From contig JAEDDH010000001.1 in assembly GCA_016293845.1 (NCBI GenBank), forward strand, positions 29,211 to 93,210: 64,000 nt of DNA. The letters are read 5' to 3'. Position 1 is the stretch's first letter. Each line of letters opens with the position of its first letter. Shown here piece by piece: positions 6,273 to 64,000 of this stretch. This DNA comes from Bacteroidales bacterium (GTDB lineage Bacteria; Bacteroidota; Bacteroidia; Bacteroidales; UBA3824). The notes beneath the pieces are model-generated. The model was not told the origin of the DNA, made no database searches, and saw only the letters and a list, made by a program, of their open reading frames with translations. Position numbers and translations under genes: made by a program.

Positions 6273-7282
6273 TTGTCTTGAATTTCTTTTGTGATTTTTG
6301 GGAGCAGCGATACAAAACGTTTTACCACCTCTTCCAATGGTTTAAACGATTTTCCGCCCGCAGCGTTGTCGTGTCCGCCGCCGTTGAAATAACGTTCTGC
6401 AATGGTGTTGACCTTGAAACCGCCTTTTGAGCGGAACGAACAGCGTATAATGCCGTCTCTCTCCATAAAGAATGCCGAAAACTTTACGTGCTCGATGCTA
6501 AGTGGCAGATTTACAAAGCCTTCGGTGTCGCCCACACGGTAGTCGAATTTGTCGGCTTCTGCCTTTGTGAGCATAATGTAGGCGGTATGATATTTTTCAA
6601 ACACCACCATTTTTTTGCTGAGGACGTATCCTTGCAGGCGCATACGACCTTCGGAATACGAATCGTAGATGTGGTGGATGATTTCGGCGCGGTCGATGGG
6701 CATTGCGGCAAGTTTCGATGCCACTTCAAATGTGCGCTGACCTGTGCAGTTAAACTGAAAACATCCAGTATCGGTGGTAAGTCCTGTAAATAAGCAAATT
6801 GCAGAATCGTTCGACACTTCAAAACCGCACGCTTCAAAAAAAAGGTAAAGCAATTCGCAAGTGGCGGCGGCTTCGGGGTCGGAAAAAATGTATTTAAAAA
6901 TATCGCGTTGAGGGTTTGGATGGTGGTCGATCATCACTTTTACGGCGGGGCTCTCTTCCAGCACCTTCTGCATCTTGTCCACACGCGACGACGAGCTGTA
7001 GTCGAGAGCAAAAATCATATCGGCTTCCGAAACCTTGGCGGCGTTTTCGTCGTGGTTGTAGATGAGTATTTCGTTGCATCCGGGCATCCATTTAAAGGTG
7101 TCGGGGATGTTGTTTGGCAGTATTACGCAACAATCTTTCTTGTCTTTGAGGTAGTTGTAAAGTGCGAGCGATGATCCGAGAGCGTCGCCATCGGGGTTGA
7201 GGTGCGCCGTTATAACCACTTTTTTTGCCTTGTTGAGCAAATCTTTTATCTCTTCAACAGATTTTTTTTCAAATAATTCCAT
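6269..7282 (-). CDS. nrnA: DHH-family phosphoesterase (NrnA-like bifunctional oligoribonuclease/pAp phosphatase)
   Basis: DHH motifs (HLNPDGDALGS, MIDHHPN) and a DHHA1 C-terminus; 4-bp overlap with the FKBP gene. Confidence 0.7.
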   Translation of the reverse strand: MELFEKKSVEEIKDLLNKAKKVVITAHLNPDGDALGSSLALYNYLKDKKDCCVILPNNIPDTFKWMPGCNEILIYNHDENAAKVSEADMIFALDYSSSSRVDKMQKVLEESPAVKVMIDHHPNPQRDIFKYIFSDPEAAATCELLYLFFEACGFEVSNDSAICLFTGLTTDTGCFQFNCTGQRTFEVASKLAAMPIDRAEIIHHIYDSYSEGRMRLQGYVLSKKMVVFEKYHTAYIMLTKAEADKFDYRVGDTEGFVNLPLSIEHVKFSAFFMERDGIIRCSFRSKGGFKVNTIAERYFNGGGHDNAAGGKSFKPLEEVVKRFVSLLPKITKEIQDK

Positions 7283-7360
7283 TTTTGTTTTATAAAATTA
7301 ATCAAATTGCTACATTTGCAGAAATTTTTGCAAATATATAAATTTAAAAACAAATCAAAA

Positions 7361-7828
7361 ATGAGTGGAAGACATACATTAATGTTGATTAAACCCAATG
7401 CGGTTAAAAACGAGTTCGCAGAGCAGATTTTTTTAGAAGTTCATCAGCACGGATTCAAAATCCTCGCTTGTAAGAAATTGCAACTCAGCAAGAACGAGGC
7501 AGAAGCCTTCTATTTCGTACACAAAGGAAAATCATTTTTCGACGATTTGGTAGAATTTATGACCTCTGGTCCTATCTACGCAGCCGTTCTTGAAAAAGAC
7601 AACGCAGTAGCCGATTGGCGCAAACTTATGGGCGCTACCGATCCTGCCCAGGCTGAAATCGGTACGATCCGCCGCAAATACGCAGAATCAGTTCAGCACA
7701 ATGCTGTTCACGGTTCTGACAGCGATGCCAACGCTTTGAACGAAATTTTCTTCTATTTCTCTGCCCGCGAGATTGTTAACGCAGGTGGCGGAATCATTCA
7801 GTTGCACGATATCAACAAAGCCGAATAG
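7361..7828 (+). CDS. ndk: nucleoside-diphosphate kinase
   Basis: Full-length NDK with the active-site His region (NAVHGSDS). Confidence 0.9.
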   Translation: MSGRHTLMLIKPNAVKNEFAEQIFLEVHQHGFKILACKKLQLSKNEAEAFYFVHKGKSFFDDLVEFMTSGPIYAAVLEKDNAVADWRKLMGATDPAQAEIGTIRRKYAESVQHNAVHGSDSDANALNEIFFYFSAREIVNAGGGIIQLHDINKAE

Positions 7829-20878: not shown

Positions 20879-20882
20879 TTTG

Positions 20883-20956
20883 TGACCCCTGCAGGATTCA
20901 AACCTGCAACCTTTTGATCCGTAGTCAAATACTCTATTCAGTTGAGCTAAGGGGCC
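20883..20956 (-). tRNA. tRNA-Arg (anticodon ACG)
   Basis: Folded by eye into a cloverleaf: acceptor GGCCCCT/AGGGGTC, anticodon stem TTTGA/TCAAA, loop CTACGGA, T-arm GCAGG-TTTGAATC-CTGCA; CCA not encoded. Confidence 0.8.
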
Positions 20957-20968
20957 GTTGAAATTTTG

Positions 20969-21042
20969 TGACCTCGGCGGGATTCAAACCCACAACCTTT
21001 TGATCCGTAGTCAAATGCTCTATTCAGTTGAGCTACGAGGCC
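20969..21042 (-). tRNA. tRNA-Arg (anticodon ACG), divergent second copy
   Basis: Same anticodon arm as the first copy; acceptor and T-stems differ (GGCCTCG..., GTGGG-TTTGAATC-CCGCC). Confidence 0.8.
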
Positions 21043-54848: not shown

Positions 54849-55631
54849 TTATTTGTTAAACTCGCCAAGAGTATCTTTAAACTCTTGCGGAATTATCGAG
54901 AGAATTTTGTCGGTGATTTCTTGCGGAATTGTTTTGTAAAATGCCTCTGCTATGCCGCCTGTGATGCAGCAGAGTGTGTCGGTGTCGCCGCCGAGCGAAA
55001 CCCCAAGACGTATGGCAGATTCAAAATCCTTGCTGTCGAAAAACGCCGTCATTGCCTCGGGCACAGTGCCTTGACACGAACCATCGAAAGTATATTTTGG
55101 GCGGATGTCGTTGCAAGTGCGGGTTAAATCGTAGCCGAATGTGGCGGTAATGTAATCCTTGATTTCCTGTTTTGATTTGCCTGTGCGTGCAAGGAAGATA
55201 GCCGCAGCCGTTGCCTGTGCGCCCTTGATGCCTTCGGGGTGATTGTGTGTGATTTCGGCAGAGCGTTTGGCTATTTCAAGGGTTTCTTCCAAAGTGTTGA
55301 ACGCCCAACCCACGGCAGAAACTCTCATTGCCGAGCCGTTGCCCCACGAGTTGTAGGGTTTGCGATTTTTTGCACGCGACCAAGCCCAATACCCTGTGCC
55401 GTACGAACCCATCGGGTCGGGATAGCGCCTTGTAAAATCTACAAGACATTCGTCTAATTTTTCCAAAGTGTGTTTCTTATCTGTAACGAGCCATTTGGCC
55501 ACTGCCACGGTAAGTATTGAATCGTCGGTGAAGTCACATTCCGGGTCGAACAGCGGAAAATCCACCGACTTGTGGTTGTCAAATTCGTAGACCGAGCCTA
55601 CTGTGTCGCCTATTATAGAGCCTAATATCAT
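54849..55631 (-). CDS. ADP-ribosylglycohydrolase family protein
   Basis: ARH fold motifs (GDTVGSVYEF; GGDTDTLCCITGGIAEAFY). Confidence 0.8.
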   Translation of the reverse strand: MILGSIIGDTVGSVYEFDNHKSVDFPLFDPECDFTDDSILTVAVAKWLVTDKKHTLEKLDECLVDFTRRYPDPMGSYGTGYWAWSRAKNRKPYNSWGNGSAMRVSAVGWAFNTLEETLEIAKRSAEITHNHPEGIKGAQATAAAIFLARTGKSKQEIKDYITATFGYDLTRTCNDIRPKYTFDGSCQGTVPEAMTAFFDSKDFESAIRLGVSLGGDTDTLCCITGGIAEAFYKTIPQEITDKILSIIPQEFKDTLGEFNK

Positions 55632-56449: not shown

Positions 56450-57601
56450 TTATTCTTTGCCTACCCAATCCACTGATAAGAATCTGATGAGTTTGCCGTT
56501 GTGGTCTAAGATTCCCCATTTTTTGTTTAGAGAGGCAAATATAACGCCTTGGTTTACAAATACATCGTCGTAGATAGGCTGAACAATTATCTTGCCCGTG
56601 GAGTCAATCAGTCCGCATTTTCGGTTTACCTCTATCACCGCAAAGCCGTAATTATCGAATGGATAGGCAAATGAGAATTTTGGCTCTACTACATAATTGC
56701 CTGAGGTGTTGATATATCCCCATCCTGTTTTGTCGCAAACCATAGCCAATCCGTTGCCGCTAAATAAATGTGCCTCGGTCAATTTTGGTTCAATAACCCA
56801 ACCGCCTGTGGTGTCGATGTATCCGTATTTGCCTTTGTATAGTACTGGTGCCCAGCCGTTTGCCCCAAATGCAGGATTATCGTTGTCTTCAAACTTTTGC
56901 TCTATTGCCCATTCGCCCGAGTTGTTGATAAAGCCAACATAACCGTTGAGACGTACCGTTGCCAAACCAAATTGATTGAAGGGAAATGCAAAGTCAAATT
57001 TTGGTTCAATAACCCATTTGCCTGTGGTGTCGATATATCCGTATTTGTTGTGATATTTTGCCACTCCCAAACCGTTGTTGCCAAACTTTGTAACATCTTG
57101 AAACTGCGGTTCTATCACCATTTTGCCTAAGGTGTCGATAAAACCCCATTTCTCGTTGATGCATACGGGGCAGATGTTAAATCGGTTGAACTTACGTGCG
57201 TATTGAAACTGAGGCTCAATGATGATTTTGCCTGAATTGTCCAAAAATCCGCATTTAGATAGCTCACCATCTTTGTAAACTGTTGTAAAACTAGCCAATC
57301 CGTTGTCGGCAAAATCGCCCAAAAATCTGTACACCGGCTCCACCACAAGGTCTCCTTTTTTGTTGACATATCCATATGTTTCGTGAAAAATATCACCAAC
57401 CGAAACCTTAGCCAAACCATTGTTGCCAAAGCCGTTGCAATTATAAAACTGCGGCTTAATTATCCAATTTCCATTAATGTCGATAAAACCGCATTTTCCG
57501 TTGATACAAGCGAGAAAAAGAGTAATATCGCTGTCGGTTTGAGCCACGGTAATATTTGATGAGGCGGTGATGAGGCCTGCTATAATAAGTTCTTTGCTCA
57601 T
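56450..57601 (-). CDS. WG-repeat (KWG) containing secreted protein
   Basis: Signal peptide and about ten K(W/Y)G(F/Y)ID..G..VIEP.F repeats. Confidence 0.75.
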   Translation of the reverse strand: MSKELIIAGLITASSNITVAQTDSDITLFLACINGKCGFIDINGNWIIKPQFYNCNGFGNNGLAKVSVGDIFHETYGYVNKKGDLVVEPVYRFLGDFADNGLASFTTVYKDGELSKCGFLDNSGKIIIEPQFQYARKFNRFNICPVCINEKWGFIDTLGKMVIEPQFQDVTKFGNNGLGVAKYHNKYGYIDTTGKWVIEPKFDFAFPFNQFGLATVRLNGYVGFINNSGEWAIEQKFEDNDNPAFGANGWAPVLYKGKYGYIDTTGGWVIEPKLTEAHLFSGNGLAMVCDKTGWGYINTSGNYVVEPKFSFAYPFDNYGFAVIEVNRKCGLIDSTGKIIVQPIYDDVFVNQGVIFASLNKKWGILDHNGKLIRFLSVDWVGKE

Positions 57602-57817: not shown

Positions 57818-59230
57818 ATGAATCAATTAGTTGGAAGAGTCGAAGAGAAGCGGATGCTTTTTAACTGTCTCAATTCGAGCAAAAGCGAATTTGTGGTAGT
57901 TTATGGTCGAAGACGAATCGGTAAGACGTTTTTGATTCGCAGTTTTTTTGAAGATAAATACGATTTTTGCTATGTTGGAAAACACAATTATGCTTATCAC
58001 GACCAATTGAAAGCATTTGCCGCCGCCCTCAAACAATATTCGGGTAGTAAATTTGATATTGTTCTAAATAATTGGGACGATGCGTTTAAAAACCTTGCCA
58101 CATTGTTGGACTCAATTTCCCACGATGGCAAAAAGATAATTTTTATTGACGAAATGCCGTGGATTGATGGTCGACGGTCTGATTTTGTACCTGCGTTGGA
58201 GAATTTTTGGAACTCGTATGCTGCTTTTAGAGATGATTTGATGCTCGTGGCTTGCGGTTCGTCTACTTCGTGGATAGTTGACAAAGTTCTCAAAAATCAA
58301 GGCGGGCTTTTCAACCGGGTAACAATGCAGATTTATTTACGACCTTTCAATCTTGGTGAAACACGGGAATATCTTCGACTAATCAATTGTAATTGGGATA
58401 ATTACCAAATAGCGCAGTGTTATATGGTGTTAGGTGGCGTGCCGTTTTATTATAGTCTGTTGAATAGCGGTATGAGCCTTGTACAAAATATTGATTTTCT
58501 GTTTTTTTCGTCGAAAAACGCTGTTCTTAAAACAGAGTTTTCTCAATTATTTGAATCCCTTTTCAATAATTATGAAAAATACATCGAAATAATTAAAATT
58601 CTTCTCCAACGCTTTGAAGGTTTTACTCGCACCGAAATTGCTGAAATGGCTGGCTTTGGCGGTTCGCACCTTTCTAAGATTCTTACAGATCTCGAACGCT
58701 GTGATTTTATTATTTCGAGCAATAGGACAGGCGGAGGAGTTAAAAATCAAATTTTCAGAATTTGCGATTTCTATACATTGTTTTATTTCAAGTTTTTGGA
58801 AAACAATCCATCTGCAAGCCCTAATTATTGGCAAAAAATGTCAACGACTTCAAAAATAGCGGCTTGGCAGGGATTTAGTTTTGAATTATTGTGCCTTTTA
58901 CACCGTTATCAAATGGAAAAGGCATTGGGTATCAATGGAATATTAACCACGATAAGCACTTGGCGTAGCAAAGACAACACTGCGCAAATTGATTTGGTGA
59001 TCGAACGTTCCGACCGTGTTGTTAATCTTTGCGAGATGAAGTTTTCTACTAAGCAATACACAATTACAAATGATTACGACTTGAAACTCCGTCAAAGGAT
59101 GTCGGTATTTGCCGAAGAAACCAAGACAAAGTATGCTCTCAACTATGTGTTTGTCACCACATTTGGAGTCAGCAATCCTCAAAACCATTCGATTGTTAGC
59201 AACAACATTACATTAGATGATTTGTTCTAA
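57818..59230 (+). CDS. AAA+ ATPase, DUF234-type ATP-binding protein
   Basis: Walker A GRRRIGKT, Walker B IIFIDEM and the DUF234-like C-terminal half. Confidence 0.7.
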   Translation: MNQLVGRVEEKRMLFNCLNSSKSEFVVVYGRRRIGKTFLIRSFFEDKYDFCYVGKHNYAYHDQLKAFAAALKQYSGSKFDIVLNNWDDAFKNLATLLDSISHDGKKIIFIDEMPWIDGRRSDFVPALENFWNSYAAFRDDLMLVACGSSTSWIVDKVLKNQGGLFNRVTMQIYLRPFNLGETREYLRLINCNWDNYQIAQCYMVLGGVPFYYSLLNSGMSLVQNIDFLFFSSKNAVLKTEFSQLFESLFNNYEKYIEIIKILLQRFEGFTRTEIAEMAGFGGSHLSKILTDLERCDFIISSNRTGGGVKNQIFRICDFYTLFYFKFLENNPSASPNYWQKMSTTSKIAAWQGFSFELLCLLHRYQMEKALGINGILTTISTWRSKDNTAQIDLVIERSDRVVNLCEMKFSTKQYTITNDYDLKLRQRMSVFAEETKTKYALNYVFVTTFGVSNPQNHSIVSNNITLDDLF

Positions 59231-59329
59231 TCTTGGCTATTACTCGATTTTTTTCGGGGTTATAACCAAAATTTTGAATCAAAGACACTGTGCTAAGTGC
59301 CAAAAATGTGTAAAAACACACAAAAATAG

Positions 59330-59365
59330 GTGCCAAAAATGTGTAAATTTACACATTTTTGGCAC
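59330..59365. terminator. perfect 36-bp palindrome (18-bp arms, no spacer) between convergent genes; half-site repeated upstream at 59298-59316
   Basis: GTGCCAAAAATGTGTAAA|TTTACACATTTTTGGCAC read directly from the sequence. Confidence 0.5.
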
Positions 59366-59385: not shown

Positions 59386-59751
59386 TCACTGTATTTTATC
59401 CTCTGCAAATTCCAAAGCGTTCAACCCCTTATACTTATCGTAAATATTGTAGATTTGCATAAATTCATCTATTGTAATAGCGTGGTCGCCAATGGGTTGG
59501 ATGATTTCCACGCCTGGCATTCCGTATGCATACAACTTATTAGTAATATTGATAAAAACCCAAGGACAACTATCATAATGCCCCTTGTACCAAGCGTGTT
59601 TAAAATGGTGTTTATCTAACCACTTATAAAATGGAGCATCCATATCCGATAGCGAAGGGTCTTTAACCAAAAACGCTTCGGGCTTGATACGGCTGATGAT
59701 GGGCTTGCCGGTGTCTATGTCGTAATAATATGGATGTTTGGATTTGGGCAT
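59386..59751 (-). CDS. hypothetical small protein (paralogue of the adjacent interrupted ORF)
   Basis: 121-aa ORF; shares ...D.GKPIISRIKPE... versus ...DHRWFHSIISRPE... with the upstream ORF. Confidence 0.4.
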   Translation of the reverse strand: MPKSKHPYYYDIDTGKPIISRIKPEAFLVKDPSLSDMDAPFYKWLDKHHFKHAWYKGHYDSCPWVFINITNKLYAYGMPGVEIIQPIGDHAITIDEFMQIYNIYDKYKGLNALEFAEDKIQ

Positions 59752-59766
59752 TGTATTGAAATTTGG

Positions 59767-60147
59767 TTATTTGTTTGCTGCTGTTAGATATACAATTTCG
59801 GAACCAGATGGGTCGCCGGGCAAACCGGCATAACGCCAAGTGACGCCGTAGTTGTCGTATTGTTCCTTGGTGATTTCGTTAACCTCGGGACGGCTGATTA
59901 TCGAATGAAACCATCTGTGGTCTTTTATGGTATTGCCACGTTTATAGTCCGTGTACTTGTTGTCTGGGGATTACACAAAGACGTTTCCTTCATCATCGAT
60001 GCGCACTAATTCGTCTTCCATATACCAACCGAAACAACGTGCTTTTTCGCACGAATACCCGTATTTTTCTTTCCACTCTTCGTCCGACAAATGGTCGAAA
60101 AATTCAGCCGTTTCGTCTCTCCACTCTTCGTATGACTGATATCCCAT
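59767..60147 (-). pseudogene. small ORF interrupted by an in-frame TAA (codon at 59971-59973); possible pseudogene or recoding site
   Basis: Translation reads MGYQSYEEW...DDEGNVFV*SPDNKYTDYKRGN...LTAANK in a single frame across the stop. Confidence 0.4.
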
Positions 60148-60170
60148 AGTATTGAATGTTTTTTGGTTAA

Positions 60171-61712
60171 TTACTTCGTTTTTACAACGTCTTTGCCGAT
60201 GAGTTGTTTGAGTTTTGCGCCAATTTGTTCGTTAGTGTATATGTTTGTCCAATGTTGCTCAAACACAGGATTGTTTCGGTCGGCTGAGCCATTGGCGTCC
60301 ACGGCAAAAACCACGAGACGTTCCTTGTCACAAATGGCCATAAGTTTAGAGCGAAGCATACGCGCATACGACAGACATTGTGAAAAAGCATTGATGCGTT
60401 CTGCCATCGGAGACATATCTAATTTTGCTTCAATCACCAACGGTGCCGATGCAAAGTGTTTTTCGCCTTGCGGCAAAAATACGAAATCAGGAATCGCTTT
60501 CAATCCGCGCCCTGCTTTTTGCGACAATTGTCGTGTGTAGTCGCTATCGCTGTAACCAAGGCGGTGGAGAATAGGAATGAGTATTTTCTCCTCAACGTCT
60601 TTTTCTATTTTGATATCACCGAAATCCATAGCGGCGGTTTCAAACAACTTTGGAAACATATCCACATTGTCGCCGCGATCCTTTACATAACGGATTATTT
60701 CAGAATAGTCTTTGGGAGAGAGTTCCACACCATTTACACCTTGCAGGTTTTTCCTGACAATTGGAATTTGCGACAAGTAGGCATCTGCGCGAAGTTCTTT
60801 GATTGTTATTGGTGGAATTTTAACACCTTCGCATACTGTTGTGCGGCATTGGTAGTAGTCGAAAGGATTGAAAATGCCGTCTGTATTGGCTCTCCACACT
60901 GAATGTATGTAACTTCTTGGCGCACGGCAATACATAACAATTAAATCACCACGTTTGGTTTTCTCATTACATTGCCATATACGTTCGGGATTGTCGTCTA
61001 TTTCTGCACCGAGTGTGTCGAGAAACTTGAAATCGCCGGGCGCCGCTCCCACAAGCCAAACATTTGTCGGGTTTGGCAGTTCGGTAGGTTTTGGGGAATT
61101 AACAAGCATTGGTGCAAAATCGTAGATACAAGCGCAAAATTCGGCATCGGATAGGTTGTTTTCTTTTTGGAACTCGTTCCAAACTTGACAAATATCCCAG
61201 TAATACATCATATACTGTTTGTAGTCCTTGGTGCGTGGTATAGGCGGCAGTTCAATGCCCAAGACATCGCAGTTTCGCATTAAGTTTGGAAATCGGGTTT
61301 GGTAGAATATTGGCTTGTATAGTGACGGATTTTGGATGTACAATGCCATTGATAATAATTGCATCCACTCATTTTTTTCGCGATAACGGTTATTTGGCAA
61401 AACAATTTGGTCTTCGTGAAATTGAAGTTCGCCTTTTTCGTCAACAGAGAAATTAACTAAGTCGAAATTGGTAACATATTTTTCAAATTCTTCACGAGTT
61501 GCAGGTGTTTCCATACAACTAACGTTAACTTCCCATAAGACGAACCATTCACTATTGAAATCATATGGAAAATCGCCGTGTTTTGTTTCCATACAATTGG
61601 CAATTTTCTGAATTTCCTCATATTTGGGATGTTCGCCCAAATCAAATAGAGCGATTGCCTTTTTGCCATCTTCTGAGGTCTTATAAAGATTCCATATTTG
61701 TGGGTTTAGCAT
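60171..61712 (-). CDS. putative modification-dependent nuclease: unknown N-terminal domain, EVE-like (PUA-fold) domain and C-terminal HsdR-N-type PD-(D/E)xK nuclease motif
   Basis: EVE-like block VWLVGAAPGDF...RGDLIVMYCR...ITIKELRADAYLSQIPIVRKN...LSPKDYSEII; nuclease block LHRLGY...IPDFVFLP...PLVIEAKLD. Confidence 0.5.
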   Translation of the reverse strand: MLNPQIWNLYKTSEDGKKAIALFDLGEHPKYEEIQKIANCMETKHGDFPYDFNSEWFVLWEVNVSCMETPATREEFEKYVTNFDLVNFSVDEKGELQFHEDQIVLPNNRYREKNEWMQLLSMALYIQNPSLYKPIFYQTRFPNLMRNCDVLGIELPPIPRTKDYKQYMMYYWDICQVWNEFQKENNLSDAEFCACIYDFAPMLVNSPKPTELPNPTNVWLVGAAPGDFKFLDTLGAEIDDNPERIWQCNEKTKRGDLIVMYCRAPRSYIHSVWRANTDGIFNPFDYYQCRTTVCEGVKIPPITIKELRADAYLSQIPIVRKNLQGVNGVELSPKDYSEIIRYVKDRGDNVDMFPKLFETAAMDFGDIKIEKDVEEKILIPILHRLGYSDSDYTRQLSQKAGRGLKAIPDFVFLPQGEKHFASAPLVIEAKLDMSPMAERINAFSQCLSYARMLRSKLMAICDKERLVVFAVDANGSADRNNPVFEQHWTNIYTNEQIGAKLKQLIGKDVVKTK

Positions 61713-61894
61713 ATTTGTGTTGTTTTTATATAATTTTTCCGCAAGATGAGATAATCTTGCGGAAAAATGTAAGTTTATTATTAGTTATTCTGCAATCAAA
61801 TTTTCCACGCCATCCAATTCTCCTTTTTTTATGCCGGAGATTAGGATGCCGAGCGTGTCGATGTTTTTGGATTTTCAAAATGAATCAATATCCA

Positions 61895-63568
61895 TCATGC
61901 TGTTTTTTTCAAATATTGCATGTTCAAAATTTTCTCTAAATTAGTATCAGTGAATGTGTTCCAAATCACCAATTGAATAGGCAAATAGTCAGGAAATAGT
62001 TGTTTGACAAATTCGATTTCAAACACCAACCGTAAATCGTTTGGGTCGGCTTCGGGGTGAACTTCGTGTTTGGATCCTACACGTGCAACTTTGATATAGT
62101 ACAAATCCCTTATCCCTTTACCCTTACGGTAAGGCATAAAGTAGTAAAGATGATTGAGATGCACTGTTGAAGGAAACTTTTTACCTGTGTAATAGACGTT
62201 TGTCGTTCCGTCAAGCAACAGTTCGATGGTATCATTCTTCACCAATGATACAAGTAAATTTTTTGAAGAATCCAAACCTTCCGCATTGATAGTGTCGTGG
62301 TTTTCAATAATTTCGGCTGGAAATTCTTTTGCAACAGCTAAAAAATCAATAGGAACGATTTTATTTTGAGTCGAATACTTGCTGAGTGTCGCCTTGTCGC
62401 CGAACATGTATTTGGCGAAAATCTTAACGGTCTCGACATTTACAGCGTTGCCCAATTGTTTATACGCTTGTGCTTCCACGACATCGGGTTGAAATGAGTC
62501 AGGGAAACTTTGAAGTCTTGCACATTCGCGCAGAGTAAGGAAACGCTTGCGGACACCGACAATTGATGTCTGAGTAATTGCTACCAATGCAGGGAAATAT
62601 GTGCCTGGTTTGATTCGGATGCCTGATGGTCGGAATTGCAAAATGTTTTCCCAAATGTTTGGCTTGTCGGTTTGTCCGGCTTGCCATTCCAATTTTGCTT
62701 TCGCGCCGAAAAACAATGGATGTTTGCGTGCACGTGGTAGCCATTCGTCCAAAAAATCTTGGTTTCGTAGGTACAACTGGTTGTTTTTCTGAATGAAATT
62801 GATTTTCCATTTAGGATATTCCGACATATCCTCCGTTGGGTCGATTGGTTTTAGATACTCGCTCCAGACGGGGAATCCAGGCAGTTTTTCTACGTGGATT
62901 TTCTGAATGAACTCGTTCCAAAGGTCAATCAAAGTTATTTTATCCTCTTCCAATTTGTAACATTCCAAATCAGTTATTTCGTTGTCATTTTGAAGGATGT
63001 CACTAATTTTGCAAGTCGGCACTTTGTTTTTGTCGAACACAAATTCGGGCAGGTCGCCGATGTCTTTACGTATGCACATAATGTACACGCGCTCGCGATG
63101 CTGTGGTATTCCTATATAGTGAGGACTGAAAATTACCGGATCTTTCAAAACATTGTAGCCGATGGACACAAGATGTTGATGTATCACACGCCAAGTGTTG
63201 CCTCCGTCGTGAGATGCGAGGTTGCGGACGTTTTCAAGAAGGGCATATTTTGGCTGAGTCTGTTGCATAATACGCTCAACGTCAAAAAACAATGTACCCT
63301 TGGTTTCGTCATTGAATCCAAGTCTTTTGCCGGCCTTTGAGAATGCTTGGCATGGAAATCCCGCGCACAAAACGTCATATTGAGGTATTGTATTTGCATC
63401 AACTTTGGTGATGTCCCTGTCGGGTCGGATGCCGTAATTGTTTTCGTATGTTTTGCGGCAATCATCGTCAATGTCGCAAGCATAAACACATTGTCCTCCC
63501 AATTGTGACATTGCCTGGTGAAATCCCCCTATTCCGCAAAAAAGATCTATGAATTTAAACTTTTTCAT
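61895..63568 (-). CDS. DNA (cytosine-5)-methyltransferase with an additional ~190-aa C-terminal domain of unknown function
   Basis: Motif I FIDLFCGIGGF, IV GFPCQAFS, VI ENVRNL, VIII QHRERVYI and X LGNAV, followed by a non-MTase C-terminal extension; start placed at MKKFKF. Confidence 0.85.
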   Translation of the reverse strand: MKKFKFIDLFCGIGGFHQAMSQLGGQCVYACDIDDDCRKTYENNYGIRPDRDITKVDANTIPQYDVLCAGFPCQAFSKAGKRLGFNDETKGTLFFDVERIMQQTQPKYALLENVRNLASHDGGNTWRVIHQHLVSIGYNVLKDPVIFSPHYIGIPQHRERVYIMCIRKDIGDLPEFVFDKNKVPTCKISDILQNDNEITDLECYKLEEDKITLIDLWNEFIQKIHVEKLPGFPVWSEYLKPIDPTEDMSEYPKWKINFIQKNNQLYLRNQDFLDEWLPRARKHPLFFGAKAKLEWQAGQTDKPNIWENILQFRPSGIRIKPGTYFPALVAITQTSIVGVRKRFLTLRECARLQSFPDSFQPDVVEAQAYKQLGNAVNVETVKIFAKYMFGDKATLSKYSTQNKIVPIDFLAVAKEFPAEIIENHDTINAEGLDSSKNLLVSLVKNDTIELLLDGTTNVYYTGKKFPSTVHLNHLYYFMPYRKGKGIRDLYYIKVARVGSKHEVHPEADPNDLRLVFEIEFVKQLFPDYLPIQLVIWNTFTDTNLEKILNMQYLKKTA

Positions 63569-63983
63569 TTTCCAGTTGATATACGTATCTGAAAACAACG
63601 AAATTGTCGTTGTCCAATATTTTTTTGTTGATGTTGAATTTTGGTTTTCTTGCCGAGCCATCAGGCTGGTGACCTTGATGAAACGGTTTTAATATTTCAT
63701 TGTAGTTTATTCGGTTTAATTCCACAATCGACATTTTTACAAACTTAACGCTGTGTTTCATACGCTCGTGGTATGACATTTCATCTTTCGTATATGATGG
63801 GTCTTGTTGTTTGATATATTTGTTACGGGCAATTGTGGCTTCGTAATTAGTTATTTGACTGTCCTTAATAGTTTCGTGTTCGTAAATAACATACCAAAAC
63901 TTGTCATATCTGTAAATACAGTCAATCAAAGTTTGCTGGTCGTTGCCTGGTGTTTCATTTTTGGATATGTCGCTTGCCTTCAA
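63555..63983 (-). CDS. hypothetical protein, first gene of the methyltransferase unit (N-terminus may lie beyond the window)
   Basis: ORF ending 10 nt before the MTase start; no recognised family. Confidence 0.35.
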   Translation of the reverse strand: MKASDISKNETPGNDQQTLIDCIYRYDKFWYVIYEHETIKDSQITNYEATIARNKYIKQQDPSYTKDEMSYHERMKHSVKFVKMSIVELNRINYNEILKPFHQGHQPDGSARKPKFNINKKILDNDNFVVFRYVYQLENEKV

Positions 63984-64000
63984 ATCCCCAAAGAAATCAT

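Follow-up and report, generated by a model that had tools for sequence, protein, structure and literature searches.

How can a gene for a cytosine-methylating enzyme stand directly beside a gene for a nuclease that would read modified cytosine? The question is raised by a defence cluster at the end of a 64,000-nucleotide (nt) stretch (hereafter "the window") of contig JAEDDH010000001.1 from a Bacteroidales bacterium (assembly GCA_016293845.1), in which a C5-cytosine DNA methyltransferase (MTase) gene adjoins the gene of a 513-amino-acid (aa) protein with predicted EVE-like and nuclease domains. An earlier note on this DNA regarded the two as a candidate modification-linked system and as a paradox, because a reader-nuclease next to a writer of 5-methylcytosine (5mC) would be self-toxic unless their specificities differ. 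Our analysis shows a patchwork defence island whose two modules are not a conserved system. The region most likely combines independent modules, namely a Type II restriction-modification (R-M) pair beside a stand-alone, modification-dependent 513-aa nuclease. The writer/reader paradox dissolves once the gene at the window's edge is read as the restriction endonuclease (REase) of the MTase and once linkage is tested across about 100 loci.

A predicted Type II restriction-modification pair

An exact-sequence look-up of the 513-aa protein retrieved four contigs from at least five sequencing runs, with L108, L109, and L110 among the matches listed. L109 and L110 were 100% identical to positions 64000–59458 of the window, and L108 was 99.6% identical. 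These contigs continue past the window's edge, and their gene order is a WYL-WCX regulator (opposite strand), a 140-aa and a 94-aa protein, a 412-aa protein, the MTase, and the 513-aa, 58-aa, and 121-aa open reading frames (ORFs).

The ORF upstream of the MTase stays open to the window's edge (63555..>64000). What the earlier note had listed as a hypothetical protein is actually the C-terminal 148 aa of this 412-aa Type II REase. The fragment matched the PADLOC model REase_II (PDLC03409; E = 1.7e-28, profile positions 266–396 of 408), and the full 412-aa protein on L108 matched REase_II over residues 9–402 (E = 5.6e-81). Its orthologue at locus L077 (99% identical) carries the Pfam domain MTaX1, which has been described as methylase-associated in several R-M systems (PMC10853773). 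The REase had no NCBIfam match, no plasmid match and no named REBASE relative. In the variant represented by L109 (three samples), a 1-nt insertion frameshifts the REase gene at codon ~83, outside the window, and L110 is intact; the frameshift may reflect natural inactivation of the restriction gene, with the MTase next to it still intact, or an error of assembly.

The MTase is the canonical C5 enzyme that the earlier note had described. PF00145 was found at residues 35–419 of the 588-aa ORF (E = 2e-76) together with TIGR00675 (dcm, E = 1.5e-75), and motifs I (DLFCGIGGF), IV (GFPCQAFS), VI (LLENV), VIII (QHRERV), IX (RFLTLRECARLQSFPD), and X (QLGNAVNV) are legible in the translation. Because the gene calls on the identical contigs L108–L110 give a protein of 557 aa, translation most likely starts at M31 of the ORF (MKKFKF, position 63571), for a length of 557–558 aa. 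With this start, the MTase gene overlaps the stop of the upstream REase gene by 17 nt.

Scanning metagenome contigs with the MTase yielded 23 loci. In 11 of them, a homologue of the REase fragment directly precedes the MTase homologue; in two others, it is encoded close by on the opposite strand. The pairing persisted down to about 50% MTase identity. Since this pairing is kept across loci, REase and MTase form a conserved, self-contained Type II R-M operon, and the 412-aa protein is the predicted cognate restriction enzyme, against which the overlapping MTase would mark host sites. The pair resembles known Type II systems with a C5-MTase and an MTaX1 partner in that a REase_II/MTaX1 protein is encoded directly upstream of, and overlaps, a canonical C5-MTase. 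It differs in that the MTase lineage of the window (at least 80% identity) has gained a C-terminal module of ~120 aa.

As the MTase has its own predicted cognate REase, the premise for seeing the EVE-nuclease as its partner is gone. The self-toxicity paradox of the earlier note then reduces to two independent systems that need compatible specificities in one genome, a situation common to Type IV enzymes. The sole constraint on co-residence would be that the EVE-nuclease does not recognize the product of the host MTase in its sequence context.

Separate occurrence of the two modules

The earlier note had accepted that its coupling of MTase and nuclease would be refuted if homologues of the two genes did not co-occur in other genomes, and the coupling fails this check in both directions. 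We scanned one genome per GTDB species and obtained 76 loci with a homologue of the 513-aa protein, each with up to 8 kb on either side. In these loci, tblastn detected neither the REase fragment (0/76) nor the C-terminal domain of the MTase (0/76), and the MTase core was matched once, by a C5-MTase of 27% identity. None of the 23 MTase loci contained a homologue of the 513-aa protein, including the locus with the 97.5–98.6% identical R-M cassette.

When the neighbouring ORFs of the 513-aa homologues were clustered, no family occurred in more than 15 of the 76 loci. WYL-WCX regulators were found in 15 loci (directly upstream on the same strand in four), followed by RhuM/Fic proteins (9), Bro-N proteins (6), and AAA_14-DUF4143 ATPases (6), with HTH_19, YhcG, and others being rarer. 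Among the 16 recurrent clusters of neighbours that were inspected, with ten representatives scanned against Pfam, there was no MTase cluster. Neighbours this variable, with no family beyond 15 of 76 loci, are the signature of a stand-alone gene in variable defence islands. PUA-nuclease ORFs have been noted to lie rarely near MTase ORFs, conflict with MTases being a risk (PMC6765204).

The junction between the modules was resolved by two alignments. Homology to L077 in blastn extends from position 64000 to 61725 (97.5% identity over 2285 nt, or 98.6% over 2221 nt in the default search). L077 holds the same R-M cassette as the window, the same gene relic and hairpin, and then a 318-aa HARE-HTH protein in place of the 513-aa gene. 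Homology to L001 begins at 61859, and the 513-aa gene of that locus is 93.8% identical. The hairpin at the junction (61733..61768) has a predicted RNA folding energy of −19.6 kcal/mol (z = −9.25; none of 200 shuffled sequences folded as well) and was missed by a simple terminator scan. L001, L004, and L077 conserve it behind the upstream gene, and L007 conserves part of it. As judged from these alignments, the hairpin marks the boundary between exchangeable cassettes, and the junction is a recombination scar. The HARE-HTH gene of L077 spans 6436–7392 on its contig; the HARE-HTH domain is typical of proteins associated with restriction enzymes, and no other part of the L077 protein could be assigned.

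A single defence system that couples writer and reader-nuclease by means of the C-terminal domain of the MTase and the N-terminal domain of the EVE-nuclease is therefore highly improbable. Such a system would fit two genes that adjoin in the same direction, an arrangement that recurs on four contigs with an identical 513-aa protein, and a C-terminal MTase domain that may itself be PUA-like according to its structure model; a loosely similar logic is found in DCD-methyltransferase fusions, which usually have a PD(D/E)XK nuclease gene behind them (PMC7641849). However, the recurring contigs are 99.6–100% identical to the window and represent one lineage, whereas the 76 + 23 related loci show no co-occurrence. 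In addition, the MTase is paired with a REase of its own, the two modules are kept apart by a hairpin and a gene relic, the 98% identical R-M cassette has another downstream gene, and elsewhere housekeeping or unrelated genes follow MTases with this C-terminal domain.

Architecture and predicted activity of the 513-aa protein

The 513-aa protein of the window had no match in Pfam, NCBIfam, or PADLOC, and neither the protein nor its family profile matched the Protein Data Bank (PDB) by sequence; fold comparison alone worked. It confirmed the EVE-like PUA fold and the PD-(D/E)xK nuclease that had been read from the sequence, together with Foldseek and an alignment in which the catalytic site is intact; the absence of either would have refuted the earlier note. 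The central domain scored highest with the EVE proteins 2ar1 and 2gbs (12.4 each), followed by THYN1 bound to 5mC DNA (11.3), the EVE-HNH restriction enzyme VcaM4I (10.2), PH1033 and ASCH (9.2 each), and YTH (about 7), and Foldseek backed the EVE assignment with a probability of 1.00. For the C-terminal domain, the comparison returned the BpuSI nuclease domain (9.8), an HsdR fragment (9.7), DrdV (8.4), EcoR124I HsdR (7.9), and Hjc resolvases (about 6).

In the family alignment, the invariant nuclease residues are E374/E375, D409 (IPDFVF), E428-x-K430 (VIEAK), and Q445xxxY449; D, ExK, and QxxxY are the motif set of HsdR/RecB-type nucleases. Among 30 relatives scanned against Pfam, HSDR_N_2 was found in 20, VRR_NUC in 17, and HSDR_N in 15. 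Many aromatic and polar residues of the EVE region are likewise invariant in the alignment (W219, W246, N249, E250, Y261, H270, W273, and F281-N-P-F-D285).

Helices predominate in the N-terminal ~205 residues, alongside a beta-hairpin, and neither fold comparison nor Foldseek gave an attributable structural match. A phmmer search of 1.84 billion representative sequences returned 273 matches (representatives at 50% identity), which were solely N-terminal in proteins of ~480–560 aa, or fragments. The N-terminal domain is thus private to the 513-aa family. The earlier note had assigned neither this domain nor the MTase extension to a known family, and this holds for Pfam, NCBIfam, and PADLOC. No link was found between either domain and the regulation of the respective other protein.

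In the proposed mechanism, a modified base that is flipped out would be bound by the EVE-like domain, while the PD-(D/E)xK domain would cut the DNA nearby, so that the protein would act like the known PUA-nuclease Type IV enzymes, without a cognate MTase. The combination of EVE and PD(D/E)XK domains has already been catalogued among putative Type IV restriction enzymes (PMC7641849, section 9). Compared with known PUA-nuclease Type IV enzymes (PMC6765204), the nuclease of the 513-aa protein is of the HsdR-N/RecB-type PD-(D/E)xK class and not HNH, its EVE domain is central instead of N-terminal and too divergent for the Pfam EVE model, and its family adds the private ~205-aa N-terminal domain. 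Unlike the N-terminal nuclease of Type I HsdR (EcoR124I HsdR, PF04313/PF13588) and the BpuSI nuclease domain, it has neither a helicase/translocase motor nor HsdM/HsdS partners, and its nuclease domain is C-terminal. EVE-PD-(D/E)xK enzymes bear on phage-host range and on the transformability of Bacteroidales. To our knowledge, these enzymes have been predicted and none has been biochemically characterized.

Two other roles of the 513-aa protein were weighed. A protein directed at modified RNA (tRNA or rRNA, for example), or a toxin of abortive infection, is an unlikely reading. The structural matches do include RNA binders of the PUA superfamily (YTH, ASCH, PUA), and EVE and PUA domains have long been regarded as RNA-binding (PMC6765204), but the best fold matches are EVE domains, among them DNA-bound THYN1 and the DNA endonuclease VcaM4I, and the nuclease, with its QxxxY motif, belongs to the HsdR-N/RecB type. 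In known enzymes such as Type I HsdR, nucleases of this type act on DNA. Even less probable is a housekeeping nuclease of DNA repair or recombination that is located in the island by chance. Repair enzymes, Hjc resolvases among them, do give PD-(D/E)xK and VRR_NUC-like matches too; however, the neighbours vary among the 76 genomes, often being WYL regulators or other defence or mobile genes, no conserved housekeeping neighbourhood was found among these loci, and the nuclease is fused to what is predicted to be a modified-base reader fold.

Several points weigh against the reading of the region as an R-M pair beside an independent Type IV enzyme. We infer the modification dependence and the target base of the 513-aa protein from its modelled fold alone. 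The Pfam EVE model matched just one of the 30 family members (E = 0.15), so that the EVE similarity is visible only structurally, and EVE, YTH, and ASCH domains bind RNA too. Our linkage data are limited to adjacency within 6–8 kb. The order R-M pair, 513-aa, 58-aa, and 121-aa ORF recurs on four contigs with an identical 513-aa protein, and at the strain level the R-M pair and the 513-aa protein may interplay functionally; we counted these contigs as one lineage because they are 99.6–100% identical to the window. Finally, no member of the 513-aa family was found in phage genomes by tblastn, despite a full-length match to a phage protein family.

Distribution of the 513-aa family and its small companions

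The 513-aa family comprises 516 clusters at 90% identity, nearly all of about 515 aa. Its hosts are mostly Bacteroidales and other Bacteroidota, largely from gut and rumen, with a few metagenome-assembled genomes of Treponema and Lachnospiraceae, and two distant relatives are located on Deinococcus megaplasmids. This abundant family, for which Pfam, NCBIfam, and PADLOC provide no model, is a good candidate for a stand-alone Type IV restriction enzyme. The phage protein family phrog_37753 (function unknown) matches the 513-aa protein over its full length; the phage origin at which this match hinted was rejected, as tblastn gave no match in 50,697 phage genomes.

The 58-aa and 121-aa ORFs downstream were paralogues according to the earlier note, which was not borne out: BLASTP between them gave an E value of 13, and the intact 126-aa form of the former aligned with the 121-aa protein at E = 1.2. 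The longer form (~125 aa) of the 58-aa ORF trails some homologues of the 513-aa protein; it is intact in L076 and readable in L014, apart from a frame shift near its start. The segment 60190–59751 is missing from L001, L002, and L007, where the 121-aa ORF starts 12–13 nt after the 513-aa homologue. By tblastn, the 121-aa ORF was matched in L001, L002, L007, and L076 only. Neither ORF has a family in Pfam, NCBIfam, PHROGs, or PADLOC, and the 58-aa ORF gave only a weak, below-cutoff match to DUF5816.

In three other loci, a protein of ~370–444 aa without a Pfam or PADLOC match is encoded directly downstream of the 513-aa homologue (L073, 9604–10938; L036, 9672–10790; L037, 9611–10735). Its N-terminus (FLLRWNP...GDFYYMLR...) looks PUA/EVE-like by eye. 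A related segment is part of two large proteins whose genes directly precede that of the 513-aa homologue, a 1784-aa UvrD-helicase/PD-(D/E)xK protein in L027 (2620–7974) and an 860-aa protein, truncated by the end of the contig, in L043.

A mobile module at the C-terminus of the MTase

About 170 aa follow the MTase motifs and have no family match in Pfam or NCBIfam. The unexplained extension reported in the earlier note is thus present and without a family. Its core of ~120 aa is strongly conserved, with the alignment motifs IYYTGKKFPSTV.LN.LYYFMPY, GIRDLY.IK.ARVG, and RLVFEIEF. Searches for this module yielded 280 matches with the single sequence and 1071 with the core profile (against 5.8 billion proteins). 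The best 120 of the 1071 profile matches contained no Pfam family except PF00145 and no sequence bridge to EVE, YTH, or DCD, and a PDB profile search found no relative. When 30 members were scanned against Pfam at E values up to 10, only the MTase motif IX–X part was matched and neither DCD nor EVE, and hhalign detected no similarity between the profiles of the module and of the 513-aa family.

The module is fused to the C-termini of at least five different C5-MTases. It also occurs on the motif IX–X part of split MTases beside HindVP-type REases, on an MTase beside an EcoO109I-type REase, as a gene of its own both in a BpuJI-type system (44 nt downstream of the C5-MTase) and directly after an AlwI-type REase, and occasionally as an orphan. 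The C5-MTases that bear it have partners from at least four REase families, and orthologues of the window's MTase at 50–70% identity lack it, yet are paired with the same REase family. Hence, we conclude that the module is a mobile accessory of R-M systems, mostly of C5-MTases, and not a partner of the 513-aa protein. In L105 (4241–5588) and in L106 and L107 (4237–5582), C5-MTases beside HindVP-type REases are called as two adjoining ORFs of ~250 aa and ~195 aa, of which the second carries motifs IX–X and the module; these may be two-subunit (M.AquI-like) MTases or carry an in-frame stop. For the first part in L106 and L107, the precomputed match is NOV_C and not PF00145.

A structure model of the module, with a predicted local distance difference test (pLDDT) score of 51, aligned with PUA-like folds over 96–115 residues at 3.1–4.0 Å. 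A PUA/EVE-like fold is therefore a lead, without support at the sequence level, whose chances we regard as about even. The invariant D102...E131-x-E133 on a beta-hairpin had prompted the idea of a small PD-(D/E)xK, BamHI-like D...ExE, or Vsr-like nuclease, which was dropped because the only structural signal was the PUA-like fold. A conserved nuclease downstream of module-bearing MTases, sought by analogy to DCD-MTases, was rejected, as none was conserved in the eight contexts checked.

EVE-methyltransferase fusions are extremely rare, and DCD-methyltransferase fusions exist (Bell et al., PMC7641849). If the module is PUA-like, it would resemble the fusions of DCD/EVE-like domains with Rossmann-fold methyltransferases (PMC7641849, section 12) in that a writer is joined to a fold of the reader type, with a PD-(D/E)xK gene downstream. 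In contrast to these fusions, the module has no Pfam DCD/EVE match at any threshold, its fold comes from the pLDDT 51 model, the downstream nuclease is not conserved, and the partner REase is encoded upstream and varies in its Type II family. A more far-reaching reading, which we put forward tentatively and consider doubtful, is that the module is an undescribed PUA/EVE-like reader of modified bases that travels with the C5-MTases of many Type II systems, and that the 513-aa protein of the same island founds a new Type IV family with three domains, of which the private N-terminal one brings a function that known EVE-nucleases do not show. If true, the module would provide a bacterial "writer-reader" coupling, for example at hemimethylated sites, where it could favour maintenance methylation or shield the site from the REase. 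The module is in any case an unannotated R-M accessory domain, and as a 5mC reader it would add a new regulatory layer to Type II systems.

Layout and flanks of the island

The five co-directional minus-strand genes of the earlier note agree with the ORF listing, and its perfect 36-bp palindrome indeed closes the convergent junction downstream of them (Table 1). The palindrome was scored as a terminator-like hairpin, a third partial copy lies at 59295–59322, and the 96-nt region has a folding energy of −37.2 (z = −7.2).

Table 1 Features of the defence island and of the proteins encoded in it, in window coordinates.
Feature	Position	Strand	Remark
REase, 3' part	63555..64000	-	C-terminal 148 codons of 412-aa gene; cut by window end
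MTase ORF	61895..63661	-	588 aa
C5-cytosine DNA MTase core, motifs I–X	62411..63571	-	PF00145, TIGR00675, PADLOC MTase_II/DruM-type models
MTase C-terminal extension	61895..62410	-	conserved ~120-aa core at 61913–62281
Hairpin, 15-bp stem, terminator-like	61733..61768	-	between MTase and 513-aa gene
513-aa three-domain protein	60171..61712	-	predicted stand-alone Type IV restriction endonuclease
N-terminal family-specific domain	61098–61712	-	aa 1–205
EVE-like PUA domain	60672–61073	-	aa ~214–347
HsdR-N/RecB-like PD-(D/E)xK nuclease	60174–60617	-	aa ~366–513
58-aa ORF	59971..60147	-	stop-shortened version of ~125-aa small ORF
121-aa ORF	59386..59751	-	no family; trails 513-aa gene in closest relatives only
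Perfect 36-bp palindrome	59330..59365	no strand	bidirectional terminator-like element at convergent junction
470-aa ATPase (ATPase_2/AAA)	57818..59230	+	PADLOC PDC-S27

On the other side of the palindrome, the gene of a 470-aa ATPase converges on the cluster. Its product has a near full-length PADLOC match to the candidate defence protein PDC-S27 (E = 7.6e-181), a Pfam ATPase_2 match (E = 1e-17), and a weak DUF4143-like C-terminus. Homologues of the ATPase adjoin the 513-aa gene in just three other loci, at differing positions, and the ATPase is a further, independent component of the island. Beyond the island, ordinary chromosomal genes follow again, such as those for ADP-ribosylglycohydrolase, alcohol dehydrogenase, and PurT. 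No tRNA gene adjoins the island, and two tandem tRNA-Arg(ACG) genes are located far away, at 20882–21042 (minus strand). The flank on the chromosomal side contains a 383-aa WG-repeat protein with eight repeats (56450–57601, minus strand) and the ADP-ribosylglycohydrolase (54849–55631, minus strand). L003, L007, and L014 have homologues of these flanking genes close to the 513-aa gene, in a rearranged order.

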